Below, piece after piece: positions 107 through 11,124 of a DNA stretch of 11,125 nucleotides. Position numbers and translations under genes: made by a program. The DNA is taken from assembly GCA_049599475.1 (NCBI GenBank), contig JBMYOQ010000108.1, positions 1 through 11,125 of the forward strand, read 5' to 3'. Positions within the stretch are counted from its first letter, which is position 1, and every line of letters begins with the position of its first letter. This DNA comes from Opitutales bacterium. GTDB taxonomy: Bacteria; Verrucomicrobiota; Verrucomicrobiia; Opitutales; JABSRG01. The notes under the pieces are model-generated. The model did not search any database. It saw only the letters and a program-made list of their open reading frames with translations, and was not told the origin of the DNA.

Positions 107-259
107 TTTGATCCAGATTGAGTCTCTTCCGTTTAGTTTACGCCCTTAATGCGAGCATCTGATGAATTGTTCGAATCTGAGACCCCGACAAGCTGGACCT
201 TCGGACGCTCGTTTACGTCCAATTCTAAATACTCGAACTCTCACGAAAGCATCCATCAA

Positions 260-976
260 ATGAACATCAAACCCCTCATCTGCACCGCAGCAATTTGCGG
301 TCTCGCATCAACTGTATCTGCTCAAACCGAACTCACATTTATAAGTGGTGGCTCTGGCAGTAGCCAAACATCCACGATCAGCTATTCTTCTGTGGACGGG
401 TTTGCTACTTCCAACGCATCCACCACTCTCGGTGGCAGCTTCGCGAGCTCCGTCGATTTCAGCTTCGATGTCACCGTAACCGCCTACGATAATATCACGA
501 TCGACGGCAGCAGCCTCAATCTCAACGATAGTGAAGCCACTTTAAACTTCAGAAACGATGGTTGGGCTGTAATCGGCGGCGCGAATGGCAATCGCATCAA
601 TGTTGGGGAAGCTCTCCTCATCACCTTCGACTCCTTCGTAGGAATATCTTCTGTTGAGATGACTGAATTAGGCTCGCGGGCTTGGCTCAACGGAGACGAT
701 GCAGGCCTTTTCCTCACAAGCAACAGTAACACAGCGATCGGCAGTGATCTCATCGGCACCGTATCCAATGGCACCGACAATCAATTCACCATCTCTGAAA
801 CAGTTTCAGAAGGCACCACTTATCTATTCACCGCGATAGACGGTGCGGGCCTACGCCTCGAAGATCTATCTTTCAGCTCAGTGGTAGCCGCCGTCCCAGA
901 GCCATCTACATACGCGCTTCTTTTCGGGGGTGCCATTGCGCTCGGAACAATCGCTGTGCGTCGTCGCCGCAAATAA
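260..976 (+). CDS. Secreted PEP-CTERM sorting-domain surface protein (238 aa), Ser/Thr/Gly-rich
   Basis: The ATG at 260 gives a signal peptide (MNIKPLICTAAICGLASTVSA|Q). The C-terminus VPEPSTYALLFGGAIALGTIAVRRRRK is the canonical PEP motif + TM helix + basic tail recognised by exosortase. The upstream ATG at 149 would bury the signal peptide. Confidence 0.93.
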   Translation: MNIKPLICTAAICGLASTVSAQTELTFISGGSGSSQTSTISYSSVDGFATSNASTTLGGSFASSVDFSFDVTVTAYDNITIDGSSLNLNDSEATLNFRNDGWAVIGGANGNRINVGEALLITFDSFVGISSVEMTELGSRAWLNGDDAGLFLTSNSNTAIGSDLIGTVSNGTDNQFTISETVSEGTTYLFTAIDGAGLRLEDLSFSSVVAAVPEPSTYALLFGGAIALGTIAVRRRRK

Positions 977-1618: not shown

Positions 1619-2125
1619 ATGCCTTCGAATCGCGAACAGACTTTCCATATATGGCTCAAGCGCCATGAAGCCCTTTTGTATAAGGTGATACACAGCTTTG
1701 CGCAGAGCCAAGAAGACAAGCGCGAACTCTTCAGCGAAATTCTTTACCAAATCTGGCTGTCCATTCCTAACTTCGAGGGACGGTCATCGGAAACTACCTG
1801 GATCTACCGAGTAGCCTTCAATTCCGCCATGAGCTGGAAACGCCGCAACCAAAAGCAGGCTCAAAGATGGCGAAGCTTGGACGGGCTCCAGTCAGCAGAA
1901 CTGGCTATCGAGAGCAGTAGCCCTGACCCGAGACTCAAAGCTTTATATTCAGCCATCCACAAACTCTCAGATAGCTATGCTAGCTTGATAATCATGCACT
2001 TGGACGGGCTGAGCTATCAGGAGATGTCAGACATTTCCGGTATCACTACCAGCCATGTTGGCGTTAAAATTAATCGTGCTAAAAAACAATTAGCGGACCT
2101 CATGAAAGGAACCGAAAATGAGTGA
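1619..2125 (+). CDS. ECF-type RNA polymerase sigma-70 factor
   Basis: Region 2 (ELFSEILYQIWLSIPNFEGRSSETTWIYRVAFN) and region 4.2 HTH (LDGLSYQEMSDISGITTSHVGVKINRAKKQL); 168 aa with no region 3. Confidence 0.93.
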   Translation: MPSNREQTFHIWLKRHEALLYKVIHSFAQSQEDKRELFSEILYQIWLSIPNFEGRSSETTWIYRVAFNSAMSWKRRNQKQAQRWRSLDGLQSAELAIESSSPDPRLKALYSAIHKLSDSYASLIIMHLDGLSYQEMSDISGITTSHVGVKINRAKKQLADLMKGTENE

Positions 2126-2705
2126 TCTAGAAAACCTCTGGAAAAACCAATCCACCGCGATCGGAATCGAAAAAATCGATATCGCGAAAACCACCAAGGA
2201 GCTTCAACAGAGGCACCAAAAGCTCCAGAAAACGCTCTTTTGGCGAGATTTCCGAGAAGTGGGAGTATGCATCCTACTAATTCCCATCTGGATCACACTC
2301 GGCCTTTCGAAAAATGCACTCTGGAGCTGGTATTTAATGATCCCAATTTTAGTCTTCGTCGGCGGATTCATGCTCCATGGGCGATCAAAGAATAAGACGA
2401 ATCAGACTACTTGGGGAGACTCCCTCGTAGAAGGTCTAGAAAAGGCAATACGCGATCTCGATTATCAAATCTGGCTACTAAAGAACGTAGCCATCTGGTA
2501 TCTTGGCCCATTAGGACTCGGACTCGTTATCAACGATGTGCATTTGTATTTTCTCGGCCAACAGAGCCTCAACAGCACGCTCGGTAGTACGCTATTTGTC
2601 TTTTTCCTTTACCTCGCAATCTGGTGGGCCAATCAGCTCGCAGCCAAAAATTCCCTCGAGCCCCATAGAGATTCCCTGAGGAATACACTTAATGAGCTCC
2701 GGTAA
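2118..2705 (+). CDS. Membrane protein with about 4 TM helices, putative anti-sigma factor for the upstream ECF
   Basis: Overlaps the ECF gene by 8 nt. N-terminal LENLWKNQ resembles the L..lW.. start common in ECF-associated membrane proteins. Four hydrophobic segments: VGVCILLIPIWITLGL, LWSWYLMIPILVFVGGFML, VAIWYLGPLGLGLVI, LFVFFLYLAIWWA. Confidence 0.75.
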   Translation: MSDLENLWKNQSTAIGIEKIDIAKTTKELQQRHQKLQKTLFWRDFREVGVCILLIPIWITLGLSKNALWSWYLMIPILVFVGGFMLHGRSKNKTNQTTWGDSLVEGLEKAIRDLDYQIWLLKNVAIWYLGPLGLGLVINDVHLYFLGQQSLNSTLGSTLFVFFLYLAIWWANQLAAKNSLEPHRDSLRNTLNELR

Positions 2706-3905: not shown

Positions 3906-5102
3906 ATGATAGTAAAGCCGAAGATCCGCTCATTCGTTTGTCTCACCGCTCACCCGGAAGGTTGTGCTGCTCACGTAAAGGAGCAAATCGCCATCGCTAA
4001 GGCAGCTGAGCCTGCTAAGGACGGTCCCAAGAACGTGCTCGTGATTGGTGCGTCGACCGGCTACGGACTTTCGACCCGTATTACATCTGCCTTCACTTAT
4101 GGCGCTAAAACACTCGGCCTGTTCTTCGAGCGCCCATCCATGAAGGGGAAGCCCGCATCGGCAGGTTGGTATAACTCAGCCGCCTTCGAGAAAGAAGCCG
4201 AGGCAGCCGGGCTTTACGCAAAGAGCTTAAATGGAGACGCCTTTTCCAACGAGATGAAGGAAAAAGCGATCGAGCTCATCAAAGAGGACATGGGCCAGGT
4301 AGACCTCGTCATCTACAGCCTCGCTTCGCCACGCCGCACCGACCCGCGCACCGGCGAGACTTACAAGTCCACTCTCAAACCCGTCGGCGCTCCTTTCTCC
4401 GCCAAAAACCTCGATACCGATAAGAAGCTCATCAATGAGGTCTCCCTTGAGCCTGCATCTGAGGACGAAATTCAATCGACCATCAAGGTAATGGGTGGCG
4501 AAGACTGGGAGCTTTGGATGGAAGCCCTCCTCGGCGCTGGTGTATTGGCGAAGGGCTGCAAGACTGTCGCCTACTCTTACCTTGGCCCCGAAGTCACTTA
4601 CCCAATTTATAAAAAGGGCACCATTGGCCTCGCGAAGGACGATCTAGACCGCGCCGTAAAGCACATCCAAGAAGTGATGGATTCTGTCGACGGCAGCGCG
4701 TATGTATCCGTCAACAAGGCCGTCGTCACTCAGGCCAGCTCGGCAATTCCGGTGGTGCCTCTTTACGTATCAATCCTTTTCAAGATAATGAAGGCGAAGG
4801 GCACGCACGAAGACACCATCGAACAAATGGTGCGCCTGCTCAAGGATCACCTCTACTCCGGCAAAGAACTCGAGCTCGACGAAGCCAATCGCATCCGCGT
4901 AGACGACTGGGAAATGGATTCCGACGTGCAGGCAGAGATCTCCGGCATCTGGCACCAAGTCAGCACGGACAATCTGCTCGAGCTCTCAGATTTCCCCGGC
5001 TACCAGGCAAACTTCCTGAAGCTCTTTGGCTTCGGAATCGAAGGAGTCGACTACGACGCTGACGTGGAAGTCGAAATACCCATCCCCAGTCTCGAGGGGT
5101 AG
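3906..5102 (+). CDS. fabV: Enoyl-[acyl-carrier-protein] reductase FabV / trans-2-enoyl-CoA reductase
   Basis: N-terminal KPKIRSFVCLTAHPEGC, Rossmann motif VLVIGASTGYGL, SAGWYN, YSLASP, KVMGGEDW, catalytic Y-x8-K (YKKGTIGLAK), KAVVTQASSAIP and C-terminal FLKLFGF. Confidence 0.96.
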   Translation: MIVKPKIRSFVCLTAHPEGCAAHVKEQIAIAKAAEPAKDGPKNVLVIGASTGYGLSTRITSAFTYGAKTLGLFFERPSMKGKPASAGWYNSAAFEKEAEAAGLYAKSLNGDAFSNEMKEKAIELIKEDMGQVDLVIYSLASPRRTDPRTGETYKSTLKPVGAPFSAKNLDTDKKLINEVSLEPASEDEIQSTIKVMGGEDWELWMEALLGAGVLAKGCKTVAYSYLGPEVTYPIYKKGTIGLAKDDLDRAVKHIQEVMDSVDGSAYVSVNKAVVTQASSAIPVVPLYVSILFKIMKAKGTHEDTIEQMVRLLKDHLYSGKELELDEANRIRVDDWEMDSDVQAEISGIWHQVSTDNLLELSDFPGYQANFLKLFGFGIEGVDYDADVEVEIPIPSLEG

Positions 5103-5182: not shown

Positions 5183-7468
5183 TCATCCTTCCTTCGCTAC
5201 CGTGCGCGGAAGGGTGAATAAGAAGCATGTACCTTCTTCCCATTTTGATGTAATTTTGAGTTCTCCGCCGAGCTTTTCAGTGCACTCTTTTACTGCTGAT
5301 AGCCCATAGCCACGACCCGAGTGACCATTCACGGAATTTCGCGAGGAGAAGGCCGGATGCAATAGCACACTGAGCAATCGGCCTTCGGATACCGAACCGA
5401 CCTCCGCTTGGCTGATGATATTTTGTTCAAGGGCGAGGTCTTCGATGCGGCTCAAATCAACACCGGCACCATCATCTGTAATTTCAACCTGGATACATTC
5501 AGAAGCTTTCGAAAGCCGCACTAAGACATTTCCCCGAGCACCCTTTCCTAAATCCTGGCGCGTATCTGCTTCTTCGATACCATGATCAACGGCGTTCCTA
5601 AAAACATGGATAAGAGTTTTAGCCCACTCTCGATAGGCATCTGCATCAACCAACATGTCTTCACCGGTGCAGCGAACACTATTAATCTGCTTACCTAGTT
5701 TTTTCGCAAAGAGTTCAAGGCCCCGCGCCGAACTCAGGATCAGTTCTGAAAGAGGCGCCTGAGTCGAAGGCCTTAACTGTTGCAATAACGAATCCTTACC
5801 AGGGAATTCTGGAGCGAGTTCGATTAGACGGCAAACCTCAGCGATTTCTGTATCTCGATTCGTCGAACCCGAATCGGTCAATATATCATAATGCAACACT
5901 GAACGAAGAACATCTAGGTCTGCCTGCGTATACTGCTCGATTCTGAGATTGTTGAGTTTCTCCTGAATTTCGACTAAGGGTAAATTATAGAATTTCCATT
6001 TATCGATTTCGCTTTCCAATTGATGCAATTTCTCAGCGGTATCCTTGAAATAGAACTGACCAAACAAACCTTTGAATGTATGGATTTTACGATACAAATC
6101 ATCGAGAATATTTGTTTTCTCAAACTCATCCTCATCAATAGCGAGCCCCATGATGGAAAACTGGATATAGTCCGCTAAAAGCTCTCGCAAATCGGCCTGA
6201 TCCTTGAGCGCATATACCACCATTTTTAGCTGATCTCGCTCAGAGGCGATTTCCTTCTCGAGGCGCACCTGTTCGGTGAGGTCCCCAATAATGAGCATAA
6301 TCGTTTCGTTATCCAAATAACGATATTCCAGGTTCAAACTCAACCCAGCACGTGAAACGCTATTCGGTAAGAGCTCGATCATCATTTCGCGGTTCACTGG
6401 ATTTGTCTCAGAAAAAACGAGTTCAAGCGAATCACGAAACGCGGAGGAATCCGAAGCCTCTTCGAAAATGGCCTCAGATATGGGCTTATCCGCAAACCCT
6501 TTCCCAAGCATACGTTCACAGGCTTGAGAGTATTCAGCTTCTATTTTTTCATTCCTGCAAAATGAGAGGAACCCATCGGTCGAATTATCGAGAAGAGTCG
6601 CAATTTTCTCACTGCGTTCCTGGATACGCTGCAAGGCGTTTTCAATGGTACCCTTCGCCTTTTCAAGGGAGCGGTAGTCCTTCTCTAGAACGTCTGTAAA
6701 TGTATTAAAGCGCGAAACGAGCGTGCCCAACTCGTCTTCAGTCTGCGCCTCAAGCCGTTGACTAAAATCCGGTTTTCCCGAGGAAAGCTGTTGGATCGAC
6801 TCAAGGATCTGAACAATCGAACGTCGGGTGGACAGAGAAATGGTTGTTGCGATGTAAATAACCACGACGAAGAGCAACAGACCAATGCCCGCACCTTGCA
6901 GGAGAACCCGGGTCTGACGGTCATTGATCGTCCTAACAGCTTGGTCAAAAGCCGCCTGTTCGGCATCACGAAACTCCTGGAGCAACTGTCGAGTCGCCTC
7001 CACTGTGTTCTCCATCTGAGGCACGATTTCAACAAAGACCCGATCATCGATCTCCCCGCCACTGATAAGTGCGTTGGATAGTCGGCTCGCAGACTCGAAA
7101 TATGCCAAAAACGAGTCTTCTACGACGCCCAGTCTCGATCCCAACCTGGAGGGATCGAGTGCTTCGAGCTGACTCAAGCTAAGTAGAAATGCTTTCTTCT
7201 GCTGTTCGGCCTCCGCCAGCCACGCGGGCTCACCCGCCTCTACAGTGTCCTGGAAAGTACCCACAACCTCTTCGAAGAGAAGTACATGCAGCCCCGCTTT
7301 CTCGGTAATCGGAATGAATGACTCGCGAAGCCCTTCGAGCTCATCGATACTGCCTTGCTGCTCATTGAAGATGTAGAACGAAAACAGGAGGAACAGAAAC
7401 AGAGCCGCTCCGGGAGCCAGGAGCATTTTGTGAAAGATACTCAGCTTCGCCAATGGCTTCGCACTCAT
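5183..7468 (-). CDS. Membrane-bound CheA-like (class III-type) histidine kinase: TM1-periplasmic helical sensor-TM2-HAMP-PAS-like-Hpt-HATPase, no CheW domain
   Basis: TM1 at about aa 14-34 and TM2 at about aa 188-210. HAMP motif DFSQRL...DELGTLVSRFN. PAS-like LLDNSTDGFLSF...EYSQACERMLG. Hpt LYRKIHTFKG (H463, codon 6080-6082). CheA-type N box LIHVFRNAVDHGIE, G1 box DDGAGVD, G2 box FSS...SGRGYGL. The protein ends 7 aa after GTCFLFTLP. Confidence 0.88.
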   Translation of the reverse strand: MSAKPLAKLSIFHKMLLAPGAALFLFLLFSFYIFNEQQGSIDELEGLRESFIPITEKAGLHVLLFEEVVGTFQDTVEAGEPAWLAEAEQQKKAFLLSLSQLEALDPSRLGSRLGVVEDSFLAYFESASRLSNALISGGEIDDRVFVEIVPQMENTVEATRQLLQEFRDAEQAAFDQAVRTINDRQTRVLLQGAGIGLLLFVVVIYIATTISLSTRRSIVQILESIQQLSSGKPDFSQRLEAQTEDELGTLVSRFNTFTDVLEKDYRSLEKAKGTIENALQRIQERSEKIATLLDNSTDGFLSFCRNEKIEAEYSQACERMLGKGFADKPISEAIFEEASDSSAFRDSLELVFSETNPVNREMMIELLPNSVSRAGLSLNLEYRYLDNETIMLIIGDLTEQVRLEKEIASERDQLKMVVYALKDQADLRELLADYIQFSIMGLAIDEDEFEKTNILDDLYRKIHTFKGLFGQFYFKDTAEKLHQLESEIDKWKFYNLPLVEIQEKLNNLRIEQYTQADLDVLRSVLHYDILTDSGSTNRDTEIAEVCRLIELAPEFPGKDSLLQQLRPSTQAPLSELILSSARGLELFAKKLGKQINSVRCTGEDMLVDADAYREWAKTLIHVFRNAVDHGIEEADTRQDLGKGARGNVLVRLSKASECIQVEITDDGAGVDLSRIEDLALEQNIISQAEVGSVSEGRLLSVLLHPAFSSRNSVNGHSGRGYGLSAVKECTEKLGGELKITSKWEEGTCFLFTLPRTVAKEG

Positions 7469-7495
7469 GAGCTGTTTTCTAAGATTCGAAAGGGA

Positions 7496-7873
7496 TCAAG
7501 AAATACGGGAGACCACCTGGTCTATCTGCTCCACCAGTTTCTCCTCCGTGATCGGTTTCAATAAATAACCTTTGGCACCCACATGAATGGCTTTGATAAC
7601 CTTCTGCTGATGTCCGTGAGATGTGATCATCATAATGACTGCATCCGGGTAATCCCTGACAATACGCTTGGTTGCCTCGATGCCATCGATGTCGGGCATC
7701 GTAATATCCATAGTCACCAGATCGGGCAAATGCTCTCCATACAGCTCGACGGCCTGACGCCCGTCATCCGCGACAGCGATCACTCGGTGACCCAGTTTTT
7801 CAAGCATTGCCTTGAGCTTATTTCTTGTGAGCCCCGAGTCCTCGACAATCATGATATTGAGTGCTTCGTTCAT
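7496..7873 (-). CDS. Single-domain response regulator (CheY-like receiver)
   Basis: Acidic pocket IMIVEDS, phospho-acceptor PDLVTMDITMP, MMITS and YLLKP motifs; 125 aa with no output domain. Confidence 0.93.
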   Translation of the reverse strand: MNEALNIMIVEDSGLTRNKLKAMLEKLGHRVIAVADDGRQAVELYGEHLPDLVTMDITMPDIDGIEATKRIVRDYPDAVIMMITSHGHQQKVIKAIHVGAKGYLLKPITEEKLVEQIDQVVSRIS

Positions 7874-7882
7874 CAGAATCCG

Positions 7883-8386
7883 TTAGATTAGTTCATTCAA
7901 TTTGGGACAAAAAAGCGCCACCTGGACCTTACCAAAGTCGGTCGACAACTCTGAAAGTGAAAGGGATCCTTCTTTATGGCCCGTCATCCATTGGCCTGCA
8001 TCAATTATGATGGGGCTCGACAGACTGATATCCATGGCATTGGGGTCGAGGTCGGCAGTCGCATTGCCCACGATGATATTTGAAATATCCCCAGCGGTTT
8101 CAGATAGGGCGCTCGAAACTTCCGCCTCAGCTATTTCAATGTCCTCAGTATACTTCGAGAAAACGGTTTCTATAAGACTCTGCTCAAAGCTGAAGACCAC
8201 AAAGATGTCCACACCCGTGGAGATATTCACCATTGAGGTCACATCCTTGAGGGGAAGACGCTTGGGCCTTTCATCCTGATGAATGAGCTCAGTGACCGGA
8301 ACATGCATTTCTGCCTCTAGATAACGCTCCAACCTCTGCGGGATCCTTCGCGCCAACTTATTGATATCTTTTAATGAAGGATTCAT
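7883..8386 (-). CDS. cheX: CheX/CheC-family phosphatase-like protein
   Basis: Pattern VTSMVNISTGVDIFVVFSFEQSL ... SALSETAGDISNIIVGNA ... ISLSSPIII ... FGKVQVAL matches the CheX fold. It lies directly upstream of the CheY-like gene. Start is the ATG at 8386; the track's 8389 is a TTG. Confidence 0.82.
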   Translation of the reverse strand: MNPSLKDINKLARRIPQRLERYLEAEMHVPVTELIHQDERPKRLPLKDVTSMVNISTGVDIFVVFSFEQSLIETVFSKYTEDIEIAEAEVSSALSETAGDISNIIVGNATADLDPNAMDISLSSPIIIDAGQWMTGHKEGSLSLSELSTDFGKVQVALFCPKLNELI

Positions 8387-8425
8387 CAATTTATTGGCGA
8401 TAAGTCGGAAAAGGACCCACGGCCT

Positions 8426-8857
8426 TTATCGAGAAATTGGGACAATGGTCATCCAGTCCTGAACTTTCGACTCAGGGATACACGCCAGAGCCCCAGGATT
8501 TTTTTTCATAAAGAGAAACAAATCCGAGTCATTCTGAAAGCGTTTCGCTTTGAACCCTCGACCAGTAAAGGCCAAGCGCGTCCAAATATTCTTCAAACGC
8601 CCGAAGGGAATTTGACTCTCCGACTCCAGGCATTTGATCGTCTCTGCATCCGAGGAAAACGCGAGACGCGTGGGATCCCCGTTCTCCCAGTATCGAACCT
8701 CACCTTTGATAATCCCCGCTAAATTTACATCATTTAGATTCTCAACGGTGTTTTGAGCATGGATCACAAAGACGCTGCGAGCTTCGCAAACCAAAGCTCC
8801 CTGGAATATCAGCACTATGCCCAAAAGCGCTGTGACTGTTCGCCGTCCAAGCCTCAT
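8426..8857 (-). CDS. Small exported protein resembling one lobe of a PstS-like periplasmic binding protein
   Basis: Signal peptide MRLGRRTVTALLGIVLIFQGALVCEA. VFVIHAQNTVENLNDVNLAGIIKGEVRYWENG resembles the PstS segment 'vivn..npv..Ls..ql..If.G.i..W'. FMKKNPGALACI resembles 'v..npgaigyv'. At 143 aa it is far shorter than a two-lobed PstS. Confidence 0.75.
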   Translation of the reverse strand: MRLGRRTVTALLGIVLIFQGALVCEARSVFVIHAQNTVENLNDVNLAGIIKGEVRYWENGDPTRLAFSSDAETIKCLESESQIPFGRLKNIWTRLAFTGRGFKAKRFQNDSDLFLFMKKNPGALACIPESKVQDWMTIVPISR

Positions 8858-8860
8858 TTT

Positions 8861-10132
8861 CTAGAAACTCAAGGTTACTTTGAAGGCGAGTCCGAGCGTA
8901 GTATCATAGACCCTGCTGGACGGAAATCGCTCCGTGAGCGTATTGCGCGAATCCCCCACGATTCTCAGCTTCTGCTGCCAGTGCGCCTCCATCTTTAGGA
9001 GTGTAGATTCCCTCCACTGATAGCTGAATCCCAAGGCCAGATTGCGGAAGTTGTGCATGTTCGAAACCAATCTGTCTTCTACCAGCTCAGACCCATCTCG
9101 ATCCGAAGAATCCGCATAATACTCCGTGTAATACGTACCAATGCTCAACTTATCAGATATAAATCGCTCCGCCGAGACATACCAACCGTCCAAGTTCGTG
9201 GAATCTCCGAAACCAGAGGAATTTGGGGGAACTCCATCCAAAAAAACACGCCCATCCGAAGACCTCCCCGCCAGATACTCGGCCCGGAACACCCAATCGT
9301 CCATGACATACTCGGAGGACAGAACGTGCCAGGAGAGCGAACTCTCCGAATAGTAATCTTGTACCGGCAAGCCCTCCGCGAGAGACATATCACCTCGGAT
9401 ACTGAAGTCATTGTAGCGCGCATAGCTGTAAGCCAGAGTCAGCCCGAAATTTGAGTACCAACGAAGCTGGCCGCCATAGATAGTATCCAGGCCAATAGCA
9501 GGATTCGTAAAGGTGCCTTCAAAGGACTGAAAAGCGATCGTCGAGATTGCATCAAAAACATCCTGATCATCAAAATCGATATCCCCTCCATACAAATCAT
9601 AGGAAAACGAACCCCAGTTCTCCGTATCGACGGTCCCATAGACCGAAAAGCCATCAATCGAGGTGTTGATGTCTCGCAGGTCGAGAACATAGACGCCCGC
9701 CGGCAAACGAATAAATGTACGGGTAGCATCAATATCAATGGTCTCTAGGAAGAAACCCTCCTTGCGCCGAATCCGTCCAGCCCGCAACCCAAACTCCTGA
9801 GTGACCTCATGATCGAGGTAGAGGTAGTCTAGCTTAGGATCAATATCGTCATCATCCCCCAAATGGAATACGAACACCTGCCCGCTGATAAGCGTCTTAT
9901 CAAACGGAAAGATCGAGGCATTCAAAGCAGCCTCAAACAGCTCCACATGCTGCTCGCCCTCATTCAGCCCTTGCTCACCATCCTGAAGAAGTATACCGCC
10001 GCTCACAAAGCCACGGAAAGTTGGTTTTAGATCGATAGCCCAGAGACAGGGAGTCACCGCTAGCGCCAAAATTAGGGCCACGAGCCATCTTCTGAGAATG
10101 GCAAATTTATTGGCAGAAGTCTGAAAATCCAT
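8861..10132 (-). CDS. Outer-membrane beta-barrel (porin-like) protein
   Basis: N-terminal signal peptide ending ...TPCLWA. Many amphipathic beta-strands rich in aromatics and Gly (LDYLYLDH, FGLRAGRIR, DGWYVSAERF, LALGFSYQW). C-terminal beta-signal LAFKVTLSF ends in Phe. Confidence 0.82.
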   Translation of the reverse strand: MDFQTSANKFAILRRWLVALILALAVTPCLWAIDLKPTFRGFVSGGILLQDGEQGLNEGEQHVELFEAALNASIFPFDKTLISGQVFVFHLGDDDDIDPKLDYLYLDHEVTQEFGLRAGRIRRKEGFFLETIDIDATRTFIRLPAGVYVLDLRDINTSIDGFSVYGTVDTENWGSFSYDLYGGDIDFDDQDVFDAISTIAFQSFEGTFTNPAIGLDTIYGGQLRWYSNFGLTLAYSYARYNDFSIRGDMSLAEGLPVQDYYSESSLSWHVLSSEYVMDDWVFRAEYLAGRSSDGRVFLDGVPPNSSGFGDSTNLDGWYVSAERFISDKLSIGTYYTEYYADSSDRDGSELVEDRLVSNMHNFRNLALGFSYQWRESTLLKMEAHWQQKLRIVGDSRNTLTERFPSSRVYDTTLGLAFKVTLSF

Positions 10133-10184
10133 GGAAGTTCTATATCAAAAATGCGAAATCACTCTCAAAAGAGCATCTACACAT

Positions 10185-10212
10185 TATTCGACAAGGCCCC
10201 ACGCATCCTTAG
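10185..10212 (-). promoter_or_regulatory. Possible sigma28 (FliA)-like promoter for the five-gene signalling operon
   Basis: The minus strand reads CTAAG-GATGCGTGGGGCCTT(15 nt)-GTCGAATA versus consensus TAAA-N15-GCCGATAA (3/4 and 5/8 matches, exact spacing), about 52 nt upstream of the porin ATG. Confidence 0.35.
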
Positions 10213-10336
10213 CGAGACTTCCAATTCATAACGCAAAAAACGACATTCTTTCCCCTTGGGTCCCAACGACACCCGAAACGTGCTTACCTAGCAGTAGCCC
10301 ATTGATGGACTCTGGATACCCAAAGATTCAGCATCC

Positions 10337-10371
10337 AAAAAACGAGACCTGCCCGTCCGGGCAAGCCTCGT
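10337..10371 (-). terminator. Rho-independent terminator after the beta-trefoil-like gene pair
   Basis: Minus strand ACGAGGCTTGCCC-GGAC-GGGCAGGTCTCGT-TTTTT: 13-bp stem with two G-U pairs that form only on the minus strand, plus a U tail, about 10 nt after the stop at 10381. Confidence 0.85.
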
Positions 10372-10380
10372 GCGCGAAAT

Positions 10381-10815
10381 TTAGCCCGCATTTACGCCGC
10401 CAAAAATCGCTTCATTCGGCGTCCGCTCCTTGGCCTGATCTAGTGGCTGATTCAATGGCATGTTCAACGACGCCGAGACCTGGTAGCCATTATTCGGATC
10501 CGCATAGAGGAATTTCAATGCAGACGAGGAGAAATAGACGGCATCTGTAGCCCTTTCATCGAGCACGTTTCCAAATGTGACCACAGCGGATGGGTCCAAC
10601 TTATCGCTATCGGAAACAACGAGGTTTCCTGAATCGCCATCGACCACGACATAATTGCCATTGTAGGTGAAGACATGGGCACCGGATTGATTGCCGACAT
10701 TGAACACACTCGCGGAATCAGATTCAACGTCTGCGTAGATTGTATTGTCATCGGCAACACGCCAAAAATGATCGTTGGTCCCGTGGATACGGATCTTATT
10801 CGTAATGGTAGACAT
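10381..10815 (-). CDS. Hypothetical 144-aa protein, fascin-like beta-trefoil candidate, no signal peptide
   Basis: The ATG at 10815 is preceded by TAAGGTT (SD-like). Three quasi-repeats: IRIHGTNDHFWRVADDNTIYA, VFTYNGNYVVVDGDSGNLVVS and YFSSSALKFLYADPNNGYQVSAS. A terminator follows. The fold call is pattern-based only. Confidence 0.7.
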   Translation of the reverse strand: MSTITNKIRIHGTNDHFWRVADDNTIYADVESDSASVFNVGNQSGAHVFTYNGNYVVVDGDSGNLVVSDSDKLDPSAVVTFGNVLDERATDAVYFSSSALKFLYADPNNGYQVSASLNMPLNQPLDQAKERTPNEAIFGGVNAG

Positions 10816-10845
10816 TTTTATTAACCTTAATTTTTGTATTGGCAA

Positions 10846-11124
10846 TTAAACACTTTCCGCGACAAAGAGCGCAGTCTCCGGAACATTTTGAGCGGCCTCG
10901 ATCAACGTAGAATCTGGCTCAACTCTCAGGGAAGGGCTCAGCACCCGATCAATGCTGTTCCCGGCATCGACAAAGTTGAACCCAATTGAGGACAAGAGTA
11001 CAAAAGCTCCCGGTGCCTGCTGATTCAAACCGATTTGGGAAAACGCGGATGAATACTGCATATCCGGCCCTCCGACCTTCATTCTCACGAGAGACAGGTC
11101 AATAAAAACGTAGTCTCCATTATA
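10846..11124 (-). CDS. C-terminal 92 aa of a gene truncated by the window edge; divergent paralog of 10381..10815
   Basis: The frame is open to the window end (YNGDYVFIDLSLVRMKVGG...ETALFVAESV*), so the GTG at 11088 is probably not the true start. It aligns by hand to the downstream protein with one gap. Confidence 0.72.
   Translation of the reverse strand, partial: YNGDYVFIDLSLVRMKVGGPDMQYSSAFSQIGLNQQAPGAFVLLSSIGFNFVDAGNSIDRVLSPSLRVEPDSTLIEAAQNVPETALFVAESV

Follow-up and report, generated by a model that had tools for sequence, protein, structure and literature searches.

The DNA analysed here, referred to as the window, is a stretch of 11,125 nucleotides from an Opitutales bacterium (contig JBMYOQ010000108.1 of assembly GCA_049599475.1). 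The system in question is a group of five minus-strand open reading frames (ORFs) in tandem, which encode in order a porin-like outer-membrane β-barrel, a small secreted protein, a CheX-like protein, a stand-alone CheY-like receiver and a transmembrane sensor kinase (Table 1). These genes are separated by 3, 36 or 39, 9 and 27 nucleotides, with the second gap measuring 36 nucleotides from the TTG start of the CheX-like gene and 39 from its alternative ATG. An earlier note, made from the sequence alone, had described five co-oriented genes with short gaps that are bounded upstream by the terminator of the preceding unit and downstream by a convergent fabV gene, and each of these elements was recovered. 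The four intergenic gaps of the operon carry no terminator-like sites. In addition, no ATP-binding cassette (ABC) permease or ATPase, TonB, methyl-accepting chemotaxis protein (MCP), CheW, CheR or CheB domain is present in the scanned ORFs of the window, in line with the note, which had reported none in the unit. We interpret the operon as a combination of two recurrent cassettes, in which the barrel and the small protein form an input module and the CheX-like protein, the receiver and a kinase with a histidine phosphotransfer (Hpt) domain form the output.

Table 1. Features of the five-gene unit and its boundaries, with positions in the window (TM, transmembrane segment; aa, amino acids)
Feature	Position	Strand	Evidence or remark
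Porin-like β-barrel, 423 aa	8861..10132	-	Signal peptide; C-terminal ...LSF
Secreted single-lobe (domain II) PstS-type protein, 143 aa	8426..8857	-	Signal peptide, AlphaFold2 model, fold match
CheX-like protein, 168 aa	7883..8389	-	TTG start; alternative ATG 8386
Stand-alone CheY-like receiver, 125 aa	7496..7873	-	PF00072 E 7.7e-31
Sensor kinase, 761 aa: TM - periplasmic sensor - TM - HAMP - PAS-like - Hpt - CheA-type ATPase	5183..7468	-	
Helical periplasmic sensor domain (aa 35-187)	6908..7366	-	Sensor profile E 1e-3
HAMP (aa 212-262)	6683..6835	-	Pfam E 1.2e-7
PAS-like block (aa ~290-420)	6209..6601	-	Consensus of kinase-family alignment; no Pfam match in window protein
His463 codon, predicted phosphorylation site (HTFKG)	6080..6082	-	Invariant in 21/21 aligned family sequences
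CheA-type (P4) ATP-binding catalytic domain (aa 572-758)	5195..5755	-	HATPase_c, CheA P4 structures
Leader/promoter region 5' of barrel gene, ~210 nucleotides	10133..10341	-	
Intrinsic terminator of upstream unit	10342..10371	-	Strong; 13-bp stem and U-run; follows upstream ORF; upstream boundary of operon
fabV	3906-5102	+	Convergent; downstream boundary, outside unit

The barrel and the small protein are near-obligate neighbours across phyla. Homologous loci were collected by a motif-seeded scan with one genome per species, using an 18-row subset of the small-protein alignment as the seed. The resulting 76 loci come from Verrucomicrobiota, Desulfobacterota, Planctomycetota, Lentisphaerales, Cloacimonadota, Fibrobacteraceae and Pseudomonadota. 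A barrel homologue on the same strand adjoins 76 of the 80 small-protein ORFs, which were called in 75 of the loci, with the barrel located upstream in 40 cases and downstream in 36. The source genome of the window carries three further paralogues of the small protein, each of which is located 3' of a barrel gene.

This pair is also linked to one particular module, composed of a transmembrane segment, a helical periplasmic sensor, a second transmembrane segment and a HAMP domain, that is mostly found on chemoreceptors. Neighbouring genes were typed by Pfam scans of 355 flanking ORFs, together with a local MCP profile that recovers genes hidden under antisense ORFs. In 47 of the 75 loci in which a small-protein ORF was called, a chemoreceptor gene is an immediate neighbour on the same strand, and 45 of these 47 MCPs have the same membrane layout with a periplasmic part of 147-174 amino acids. 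A profile of this periplasmic sensor (~155 amino acids, helical), made from the 45 MCPs, finds a carrier in 55 of the 76 loci. The carriers comprise the 47 chemoreceptor ORFs and eight others, namely one HAMP-SpoIIE (PP2C) phosphatase, three kinases with HAMP or PAS domains, three ORFs truncated at contig ends and the N-terminal piece of a split MCP. None of the 16 other MCP ORFs in the same loci matched the profile. Among the flanking ORFs of the 76 loci there is no PstC- or PstA-type permease, and the transport genes near them amount to one ABC_tran, one ABC_tran_2 and one MacB/FtsX match. The association is therefore with membrane signalling proteins rather than transporters, as the earlier note had anticipated. 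Its statement that the pair is found repeatedly next to signalling genes of various kinds held for MCPs and kinases, but no GGDEF partner was seen in the sampled loci. Because chemoreceptors have no transcriptional output, the pair is more likely to provide input to the adjacent chemoreceptors than to be their regulated target.

The periplasmic domain of the window kinase is probably a distant member of the sensor family that travels with the pair, judging from sequence comparison. When the sensor profile was run against the 9,935 ORFs of the source genome, which encodes 16 MCP signalling domains, there were exactly two matches, one to the MCP that neighbours the paralogous pairs, at E 3.8e-18, and the other to the window kinase, at E 1e-3. 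The latter match joins residues 43-183 to profile positions 8-148, placing the full domain in register, and the sensor motif F-P...F...Y/F-x-D...G-D/E is retained in the kinase. In addition, the first 270 residues of the kinase can be aligned over their full length with the N-terminal parts of the adjacent MCPs, at E-values down to 6e-13. A weak match of the window domain to CHASE3 (PF05227; E 0.019, 15.3 bits versus a cut-off of 28) is paralleled by CHASE3 matches in three of the 45 aligned sensor domains, the best at 3.9e-4.

Several loci show other arrangements. In four loci from Verrucomicrobiota and Planctomycetota (L021, L026, L075 and L067), the pair and its MCP are located within a full chemotaxis cluster that includes CheA, CheW, HDOD and CheD. 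Six loci of a Desulfobacterales type (L041, L051, L068, L069, L071 and L078) share a different context, with a receiver-HisKA-HATPase hybrid kinase and an unknown protein of ~190 amino acids upstream, and an unknown protein of ~385 amino acids and a caspase-PEGA-FGE-sulfatase protein downstream. The source-genome chemoreceptor beside two paralogous pairs (C83:9015-10481, plus strand), which carries the pair-linked sensor, is interrupted by one in-frame TAA and is either a pseudogene or the product of an assembly error.

The small protein is one lobe of a PstS-type binding protein, which bears out its earlier description as half of a periplasmic binding protein. It carries a signal peptide without a lipobox and has no Pfam match, and a word-index search returned only the protein itself. 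An AlphaFold2 model built on an alignment of four paralogues reached a predicted local distance difference test (pLDDT) value of 50.6, and the model was rebuilt with 136 sequences to give a pLDDT of 91.3. Both Foldseek and VIA-align rank PstS proteins first for this model, with the alignment confined to one lobe. VIA superimposes 108 residues on residues 107-219 of 4gd5 (Z 13.7, root-mean-square deviation 2.1 Å), and the Foldseek template-modelling score against PstS is ~0.6 by query and ~0.35 by target. At 143 amino acids, the protein does not have the two ligand-enclosing lobes that characterise PstS. Of the 136 relatives, 106 match PBP_like_2 (PF12849) at E<=0.01, weakly in general and at best with 3.6e-13, over profile positions ~91-190 of 267. 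The SGT anion loop of PstS is kept in only one of the 136 relatives and is absent from the window protein; in profile alignments with 4q8r and 4gd5, the residues e-v-h stand opposite S-G-T.

An exhaustive profile search places this protein in a large family, with 3,935 clusters at 50% identity (E<=0.001), of which 831 are retained at E<=1e-10. Nearly all members are 135-155 amino acids long, and in the source databases they are unnamed or labelled as phosphate ABC transporter binding proteins. The one-lobe domain occurs as a tandem pair at the outer end of a BlaR1/M56-type signal transducer (P0037, 744 amino acids), and two other proteins (P0052 and P0121) consist of the domain in tandem duplicate. 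The two copies might pair into a full clam. The remaining longer forms among the matches listed are one single-pass protein of 568 amino acids and two-lobe PstS-like proteins, which weakly suggests that fusions of this domain are rare.

MBP-Tar in E. coli is a binding-protein-dependent chemoreceptor system in which comparable components operate. The accessible text of a review on binding-protein chemoreceptors (PMC8050422) lists PstS-CtpL of Pseudomonas aeruginosa as another case, and that text mentions neither a porin nor a truncated binding protein. As in these systems, a periplasmic protein with the solute-binding fold is encoded here with a transmembrane receptor whose periplasmic part is helical. 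However, the protein described here has one lobe rather than two, lacks the phosphate loop, is not shared with an ABC transporter and has an obligate outer-membrane barrel as its partner.

The barrel has no credible relative among solved structures, as judged by a search of its profile against the sequences of the Protein Data Bank (PDB), and its match to Pfam BBP2 is below threshold (E 0.0053, 16.5 bits versus a cut-off of 26.2). Its family resemblance is to porins: among 60 relatives scanned at E<=0.01, 20 match Porin_4, 17 match Porin_O_P and six match BBP2, and neither Plug nor TonB_dep_Rec, which define TonB-dependent receptors, is found among the matches. In the alignment of these relatives G41, Q85, D107 and R138 are among the invariant residues, and the C-terminal aromatic residue is shared.

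Structure prediction places the two proteins together. For the modelled complex of barrel and small protein, the median ipSAE interface score over three runs is 0.66, compared to 0.33 for the best of three controls, so that the complex prediction proposed in the earlier note came out above all controls. A score of 0.66 is reached by 116 of 157 solved complexes and by two of 215 mismatched pairs, and these counts are only rough given that the alignments were built by us. At least 96% of the contacts are common to the runs, and the pLDDT of the partners is at least 82. Predicted contacts on the barrel are distributed over many separate stretches between residues 38 and 422, often with i, i+2 spacing, and include the invariant G41, Q85, D107 and R138. 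This contact pattern would place the small protein in the barrel lumen or at its mouth. On the side of the small protein, the interface includes the FTGxG signature, and the protein is thus predicted to sit in or at the mouth of the barrel via this conserved face.

Conservation is in agreement with the predicted interface. Barrel residues in contact have a conservation of 0.61 compared to 0.45 for the rest, a difference reached by two of 10,000 permutations, and the corresponding values for the small protein are 0.52 and 0.43 (327 of 10,000 permutations). Tandem barrel paralogues keep their contact positions to a level of 0.71 compared to 0.56 elsewhere. In such tandem arrays (L031, L045, L055, L056 and C83 of the source genome), the small proteins are 87-100% identical and the barrels 62-82%. 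One of these arrays, L055, has three small-protein genes and four barrel genes ahead of a single HAMP-SpoIIE sensor.

The output half of the operon belongs to a family of its own. The kinase gives a clear HATPase_c match (6.2e-17) and an Hpt match below the cut-off (0.0092), and Hpt is annotated in many of its relatives. Residues 572-758 match the P4 structures of CheA (T. maritima CheA) at E 1e-27, and NCBIfam CheA models also match. In contrast, H-kinase_dim (P3, PF02895) has no match at E<=0.1, the CheW-like P5 domain (PF01584) has none either, and the protein has its own sensor, composed of two transmembrane segments, a periplasmic domain of ~155 amino acids and HAMP. A survey by Berry, Andrianova and Zhulin (bioRxiv 10.1101/2023.09.19.558490) states that every CheA it covered contains Hpt, dimerisation, kinase and CheW domains and that CheA has no sensor domain. 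By these criteria the kinase is not a CheA, because it has no CheW-like or dimerisation domain and carries a sensor of its own. The operon shares with the CheA-CheY-CheX core a CheA-type ATP-binding domain, an Hpt histidine within HTFKG, a CheY-like receiver and a CheX-family protein, and differs from it in the absence of P3, P5, CheW, MCP, CheR and CheB and in a kinase with its own transmembrane sensor and HAMP domain.

The C-terminal 332 residues of the kinase have 439 relatives (E<=0.001) with Hpt and HATPase_c domains and without CheW or dimerisation domains, and many of these are fused to CheX. The best relative is only 33% identical. Members share the PAS-like block, the invariant His and P4, and are labelled 'ATP-binding protein' or 'CheA' in their sources; H-kinase_dim is absent from the precomputed domains across the family save for canonical CheAs. 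The sensors they carry include PAS, SBP_bac_3, 7TMR-DISM, GAF, CHASE and hydrogenase-like domains. In 80 metagenomic loci of this family, CheX is fused to the kinase in 26 and encoded separately and adjacent in 35, such that one or the other arrangement occurs in 58. A lone receiver is adjacent in 37 of these loci, and CheX and a receiver are both present in 31. Thus, the window kinase is, by its C-terminal module, a member of a family of PAS-like-Hpt-HATPase sensor kinases that is usually accompanied by a fused or adjacent CheX and has a lone receiver nearby. Three family members (P0174, P0187 and P0218) carry [FeFe]-hydrogenase-like domains (PF02906) in addition to a fused CheX, which suggests redox- or H2-sensing versions of the kinase cassette.

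The CheX-like protein matches PF13690 above the gathering score (E 1.4e-9, 38.3 bits versus a cut-off of 27). The receiver has by sequence the residues expected of its class (E11/D12, D56, T84 and K106), and its best NCBIfam match is CheY_Halo at 110 bits, which is under the cut-off of 200 and hence does not identify it as a CheY equivalog.

We favour a reading in which the barrel and the small protein, docked together, relay a cue to the kinase by way of its sensor domain. This would set the phosphorylation of the receiver, reversed in turn by the CheX-like protein. We give this reading a probability of roughly 0.45, and the proposal in the earlier note that the pair acts as an input module feeding the kinase is supported: the gene neighbourhoods and the prediction of the barrel complex, two checks suggested by that note, both agreed with it, and no result that it had named as refuting was obtained. 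Specifically, a cue at or through the barrel would alter whether or how the small protein engages the ~155-residue sensor domain, with the small protein acting as a co-receptor or a detachable plug. HAMP could then modulate the autophosphorylation of His463, from which the phosphoryl group would pass to Asp56 of the receiver and be removed by the CheX-like protein. The output target could be the flagellar switch, a possibility raised by the presence of FliM in the source genome, which also holds two other CheX-like genes. As the unit lacks CheW, CheR and CheB, the pathway would work free of an array and without methylation-based adaptation.

Several observations weigh against this reading. The exact combination of five genes was found nowhere else in the loci examined. 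None of the 80 kinase-family loci encodes the barrel, the small protein or the sensor domain, so that the window kinase differs from its relatives in its input, and an Hpt-type kinase without CheW is likewise absent from the 76 pair loci. No full-length relative of the kinase is present in 100 genomes of the order, where there are only matches at the level of P4. The match of its periplasmic domain to the sensor profile is marginal, with 8-18% identity, and the periplasmic part used alone as a single query finds only one MCP. A gene with the sensor domain is missing beside the pair in 21 of the 76 loci, some of which are cut by contig ends and six of which have the other conserved context described above. 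Moreover, all 76 loci were retrieved by one motif ([YF]WK[KR]xVFTG) and sample one subfamily. The window small protein lacks the His that is common in its family (84 of 136 members), and it has no close relative among the metagenome contigs. With regard to the predicted complex, an unrelated control of 103 residues also scored 0.33 with 68 contacts, which points to a tendency of the model to dock small proteins onto this barrel, and the placement in the lumen or at the mouth is a reading of the contact pattern rather than of coordinates. Finally, the CheX-like protein has GD..N (D101, N104) where solved CheX proteins (6vpw, 3iic) have GE..N, which contains the catalytic Glu of what we take to be the active-site motif, E-x2-N; the downstream Pro is kept.

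A more specific version, which we consider rather unlikely, is that the one-lobe protein plugs a dedicated porin and can detach from it. A surface cue would unseat or re-seat the plug and thereby switch the inner-membrane sensor, and this would constitute an undescribed class of outer-to-inner-membrane signalling. LptD-LptE is a plug-and-barrel complex, and FecA-FecR is a TonB-dependent system of cell-surface signalling. As in LptD-LptE and FecA, a globular domain, whether separate or internal, is predicted to contact many strands of the barrel, and the FecA-type systems share with our favoured reading the logic of a signal that starts at a barrel in the outer membrane and reaches a sensor in the inner one. 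Unlike FecA systems, however, the 60 barrels show no Plug or TonB_dep_Rec domain, and the unit has no TonB, ExbBD or anti-sigma factor. The candidate plug also differs from the components of both systems in its binding-protein fold and in its signal peptide, which has no lipobox.

The alternative that survives best, although it too appears unlikely, is that the barrel, gated or aided by the small protein, simply admits a specific solute across the outer membrane that the sensor binds directly, with the three genes linked by a shared ligand rather than by a protein relay. Such a role would suit barrels whose relatives match porin families, including the phosphate-selective Porin_O_P, a small protein with a solute-binding fold, and dedicated sensor domains, which can bind ligands directly. 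However, a single lobe in a family that has almost entirely lost the PstS anion loop makes classical ligand capture unlikely, and the most conserved face of the small protein is the one predicted to contact the barrel. The arrays in which diverged barrels accompany near-identical small proteins and a single sensor fit a common adaptor better than independent channels, and no inner-membrane uptake system accompanies the pair.

The YfiB-YfiR-YfiN (TpbB) system is an example of tripartite envelope signalling, and in a comparable mechanism the small protein would be a periplasmic inhibitor or activator of the sensor that the barrel captures upon perturbation of the outer membrane or cell wall, such that the cue is envelope stress or surface contact and not chemical. 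In both cases the genes for an outer-membrane component, a small protein of the periplasm and a signalling enzyme of the inner membrane are grouped, so that the logic of three parts in three compartments is alike and partner switching is plausible. Binding of the small protein to its outer-membrane partner is predicted, and the outputs of the pair include kinases and a PP2C phosphatase besides MCPs. Nevertheless, we regard this mechanism as improbable. The small protein has no sequence likeness to YfiR, whose family (DUF4154) is not among the four Pfam families matched by the 136 relatives at E<=0.01, and no YfiR is found in the best 50 fold matches of the model. The outer partner is a porin-like barrel rather than an OmpA/Pal-type lipoprotein. 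In addition, the outputs are mostly chemoreceptors (47 of 55 partners), which usually read chemical gradients, with an Hpt-type kinase in the window, and the diversifying barrels in arrays suggest several specific inputs.

It is very improbable that the pair merely landed upstream of an unrelated CheX-receiver-kinase cassette with which it does not cooperate, serving another sensor or none, as the uniqueness of the combination and the E 1e-3 of the sensor-domain match might suggest, because the gaps are only 3-39 nucleotides and free of terminator-like sites, the kinase is one of just two ORFs of the genome that match the pair-linked profile, with the whole domain in register and its motif present, and its membrane layout, with ~155 residues between the two transmembrane segments and HAMP following, is the same as that of the 45 adjacent MCPs.

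A role for the pair in signal input would be of general relevance, given that the inputs of most bacterial chemoreceptors and sensor kinases are unknown and that the crossing of the outer membrane by a signal is known for few systems. If the relay from the docked pair to the sensor exists, it would explain an entire class of orphan sensor domains and extend the known signalling parts by a two-protein outer-membrane input device. If the small protein is in fact a plug, the device would extend across thousands of protein clusters from at least six phyla, where it would serve chemoreceptors, DHp kinases, PP2C phosphatases and a CheA-type kinase. The window shows that the input module can be moved onto a different output, and an array-free CheA-type kinase with CheX and CheY offers a simple in vitro phosphorylation read-out for this module. 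With regard to annotation, databases label the small protein as a phosphate ABC transporter component, whereas it appears to act as an accessory to membrane sensors that has a porin as its obligate partner. Neither phosphate transport nor a chemotaxis CheA should be deduced from these genes.

A literature search that did not extend to subscription journals returned no description of the module of barrel and one-lobe protein or of the CheX-linked Hpt kinase family, consistent with the earlier note, which knew of no functional characterisation of the pair. The esn system of Geobacter, as presented in the accessible part of its description (PMC5585712), is unrelated.

Expression signals around the operon were examined by computational scans. 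No sigma-70-like site is found in the leader region between the upstream terminator and the barrel gene, and the only minus-strand promoter-like match nearby (10518..10489) is located inside the upstream ORF. The promoter scan performs no better than chance, with five sites found compared to 5.8 expected. Downstream of the kinase stop codon, no terminator scores above shuffled sequences.

Elsewhere in the window, the ORF at 149-976 (plus strand) encodes a secreted protein of 275 amino acids with a PEP-CTERM sorting signal. An ORF for an ECF-type (extracytoplasmic function) sigma factor with Sigma70_r2 and r4_2 domains is located at 1619-2125 (plus strand) and is overlapped by 8 nucleotides by the gene for a membrane protein of 195 amino acids (2118-2705, plus strand), which has no Pfam match and is likely the anti-sigma factor of this sigma factor. 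On the other side of the operon, the last ORF of the upstream unit (10381-10845, minus strand) encodes 154 amino acids with matches to Fascin and DUF7910, both below threshold. It is preceded by an open-ended ORF (10846-11124, minus strand) with no Pfam match.

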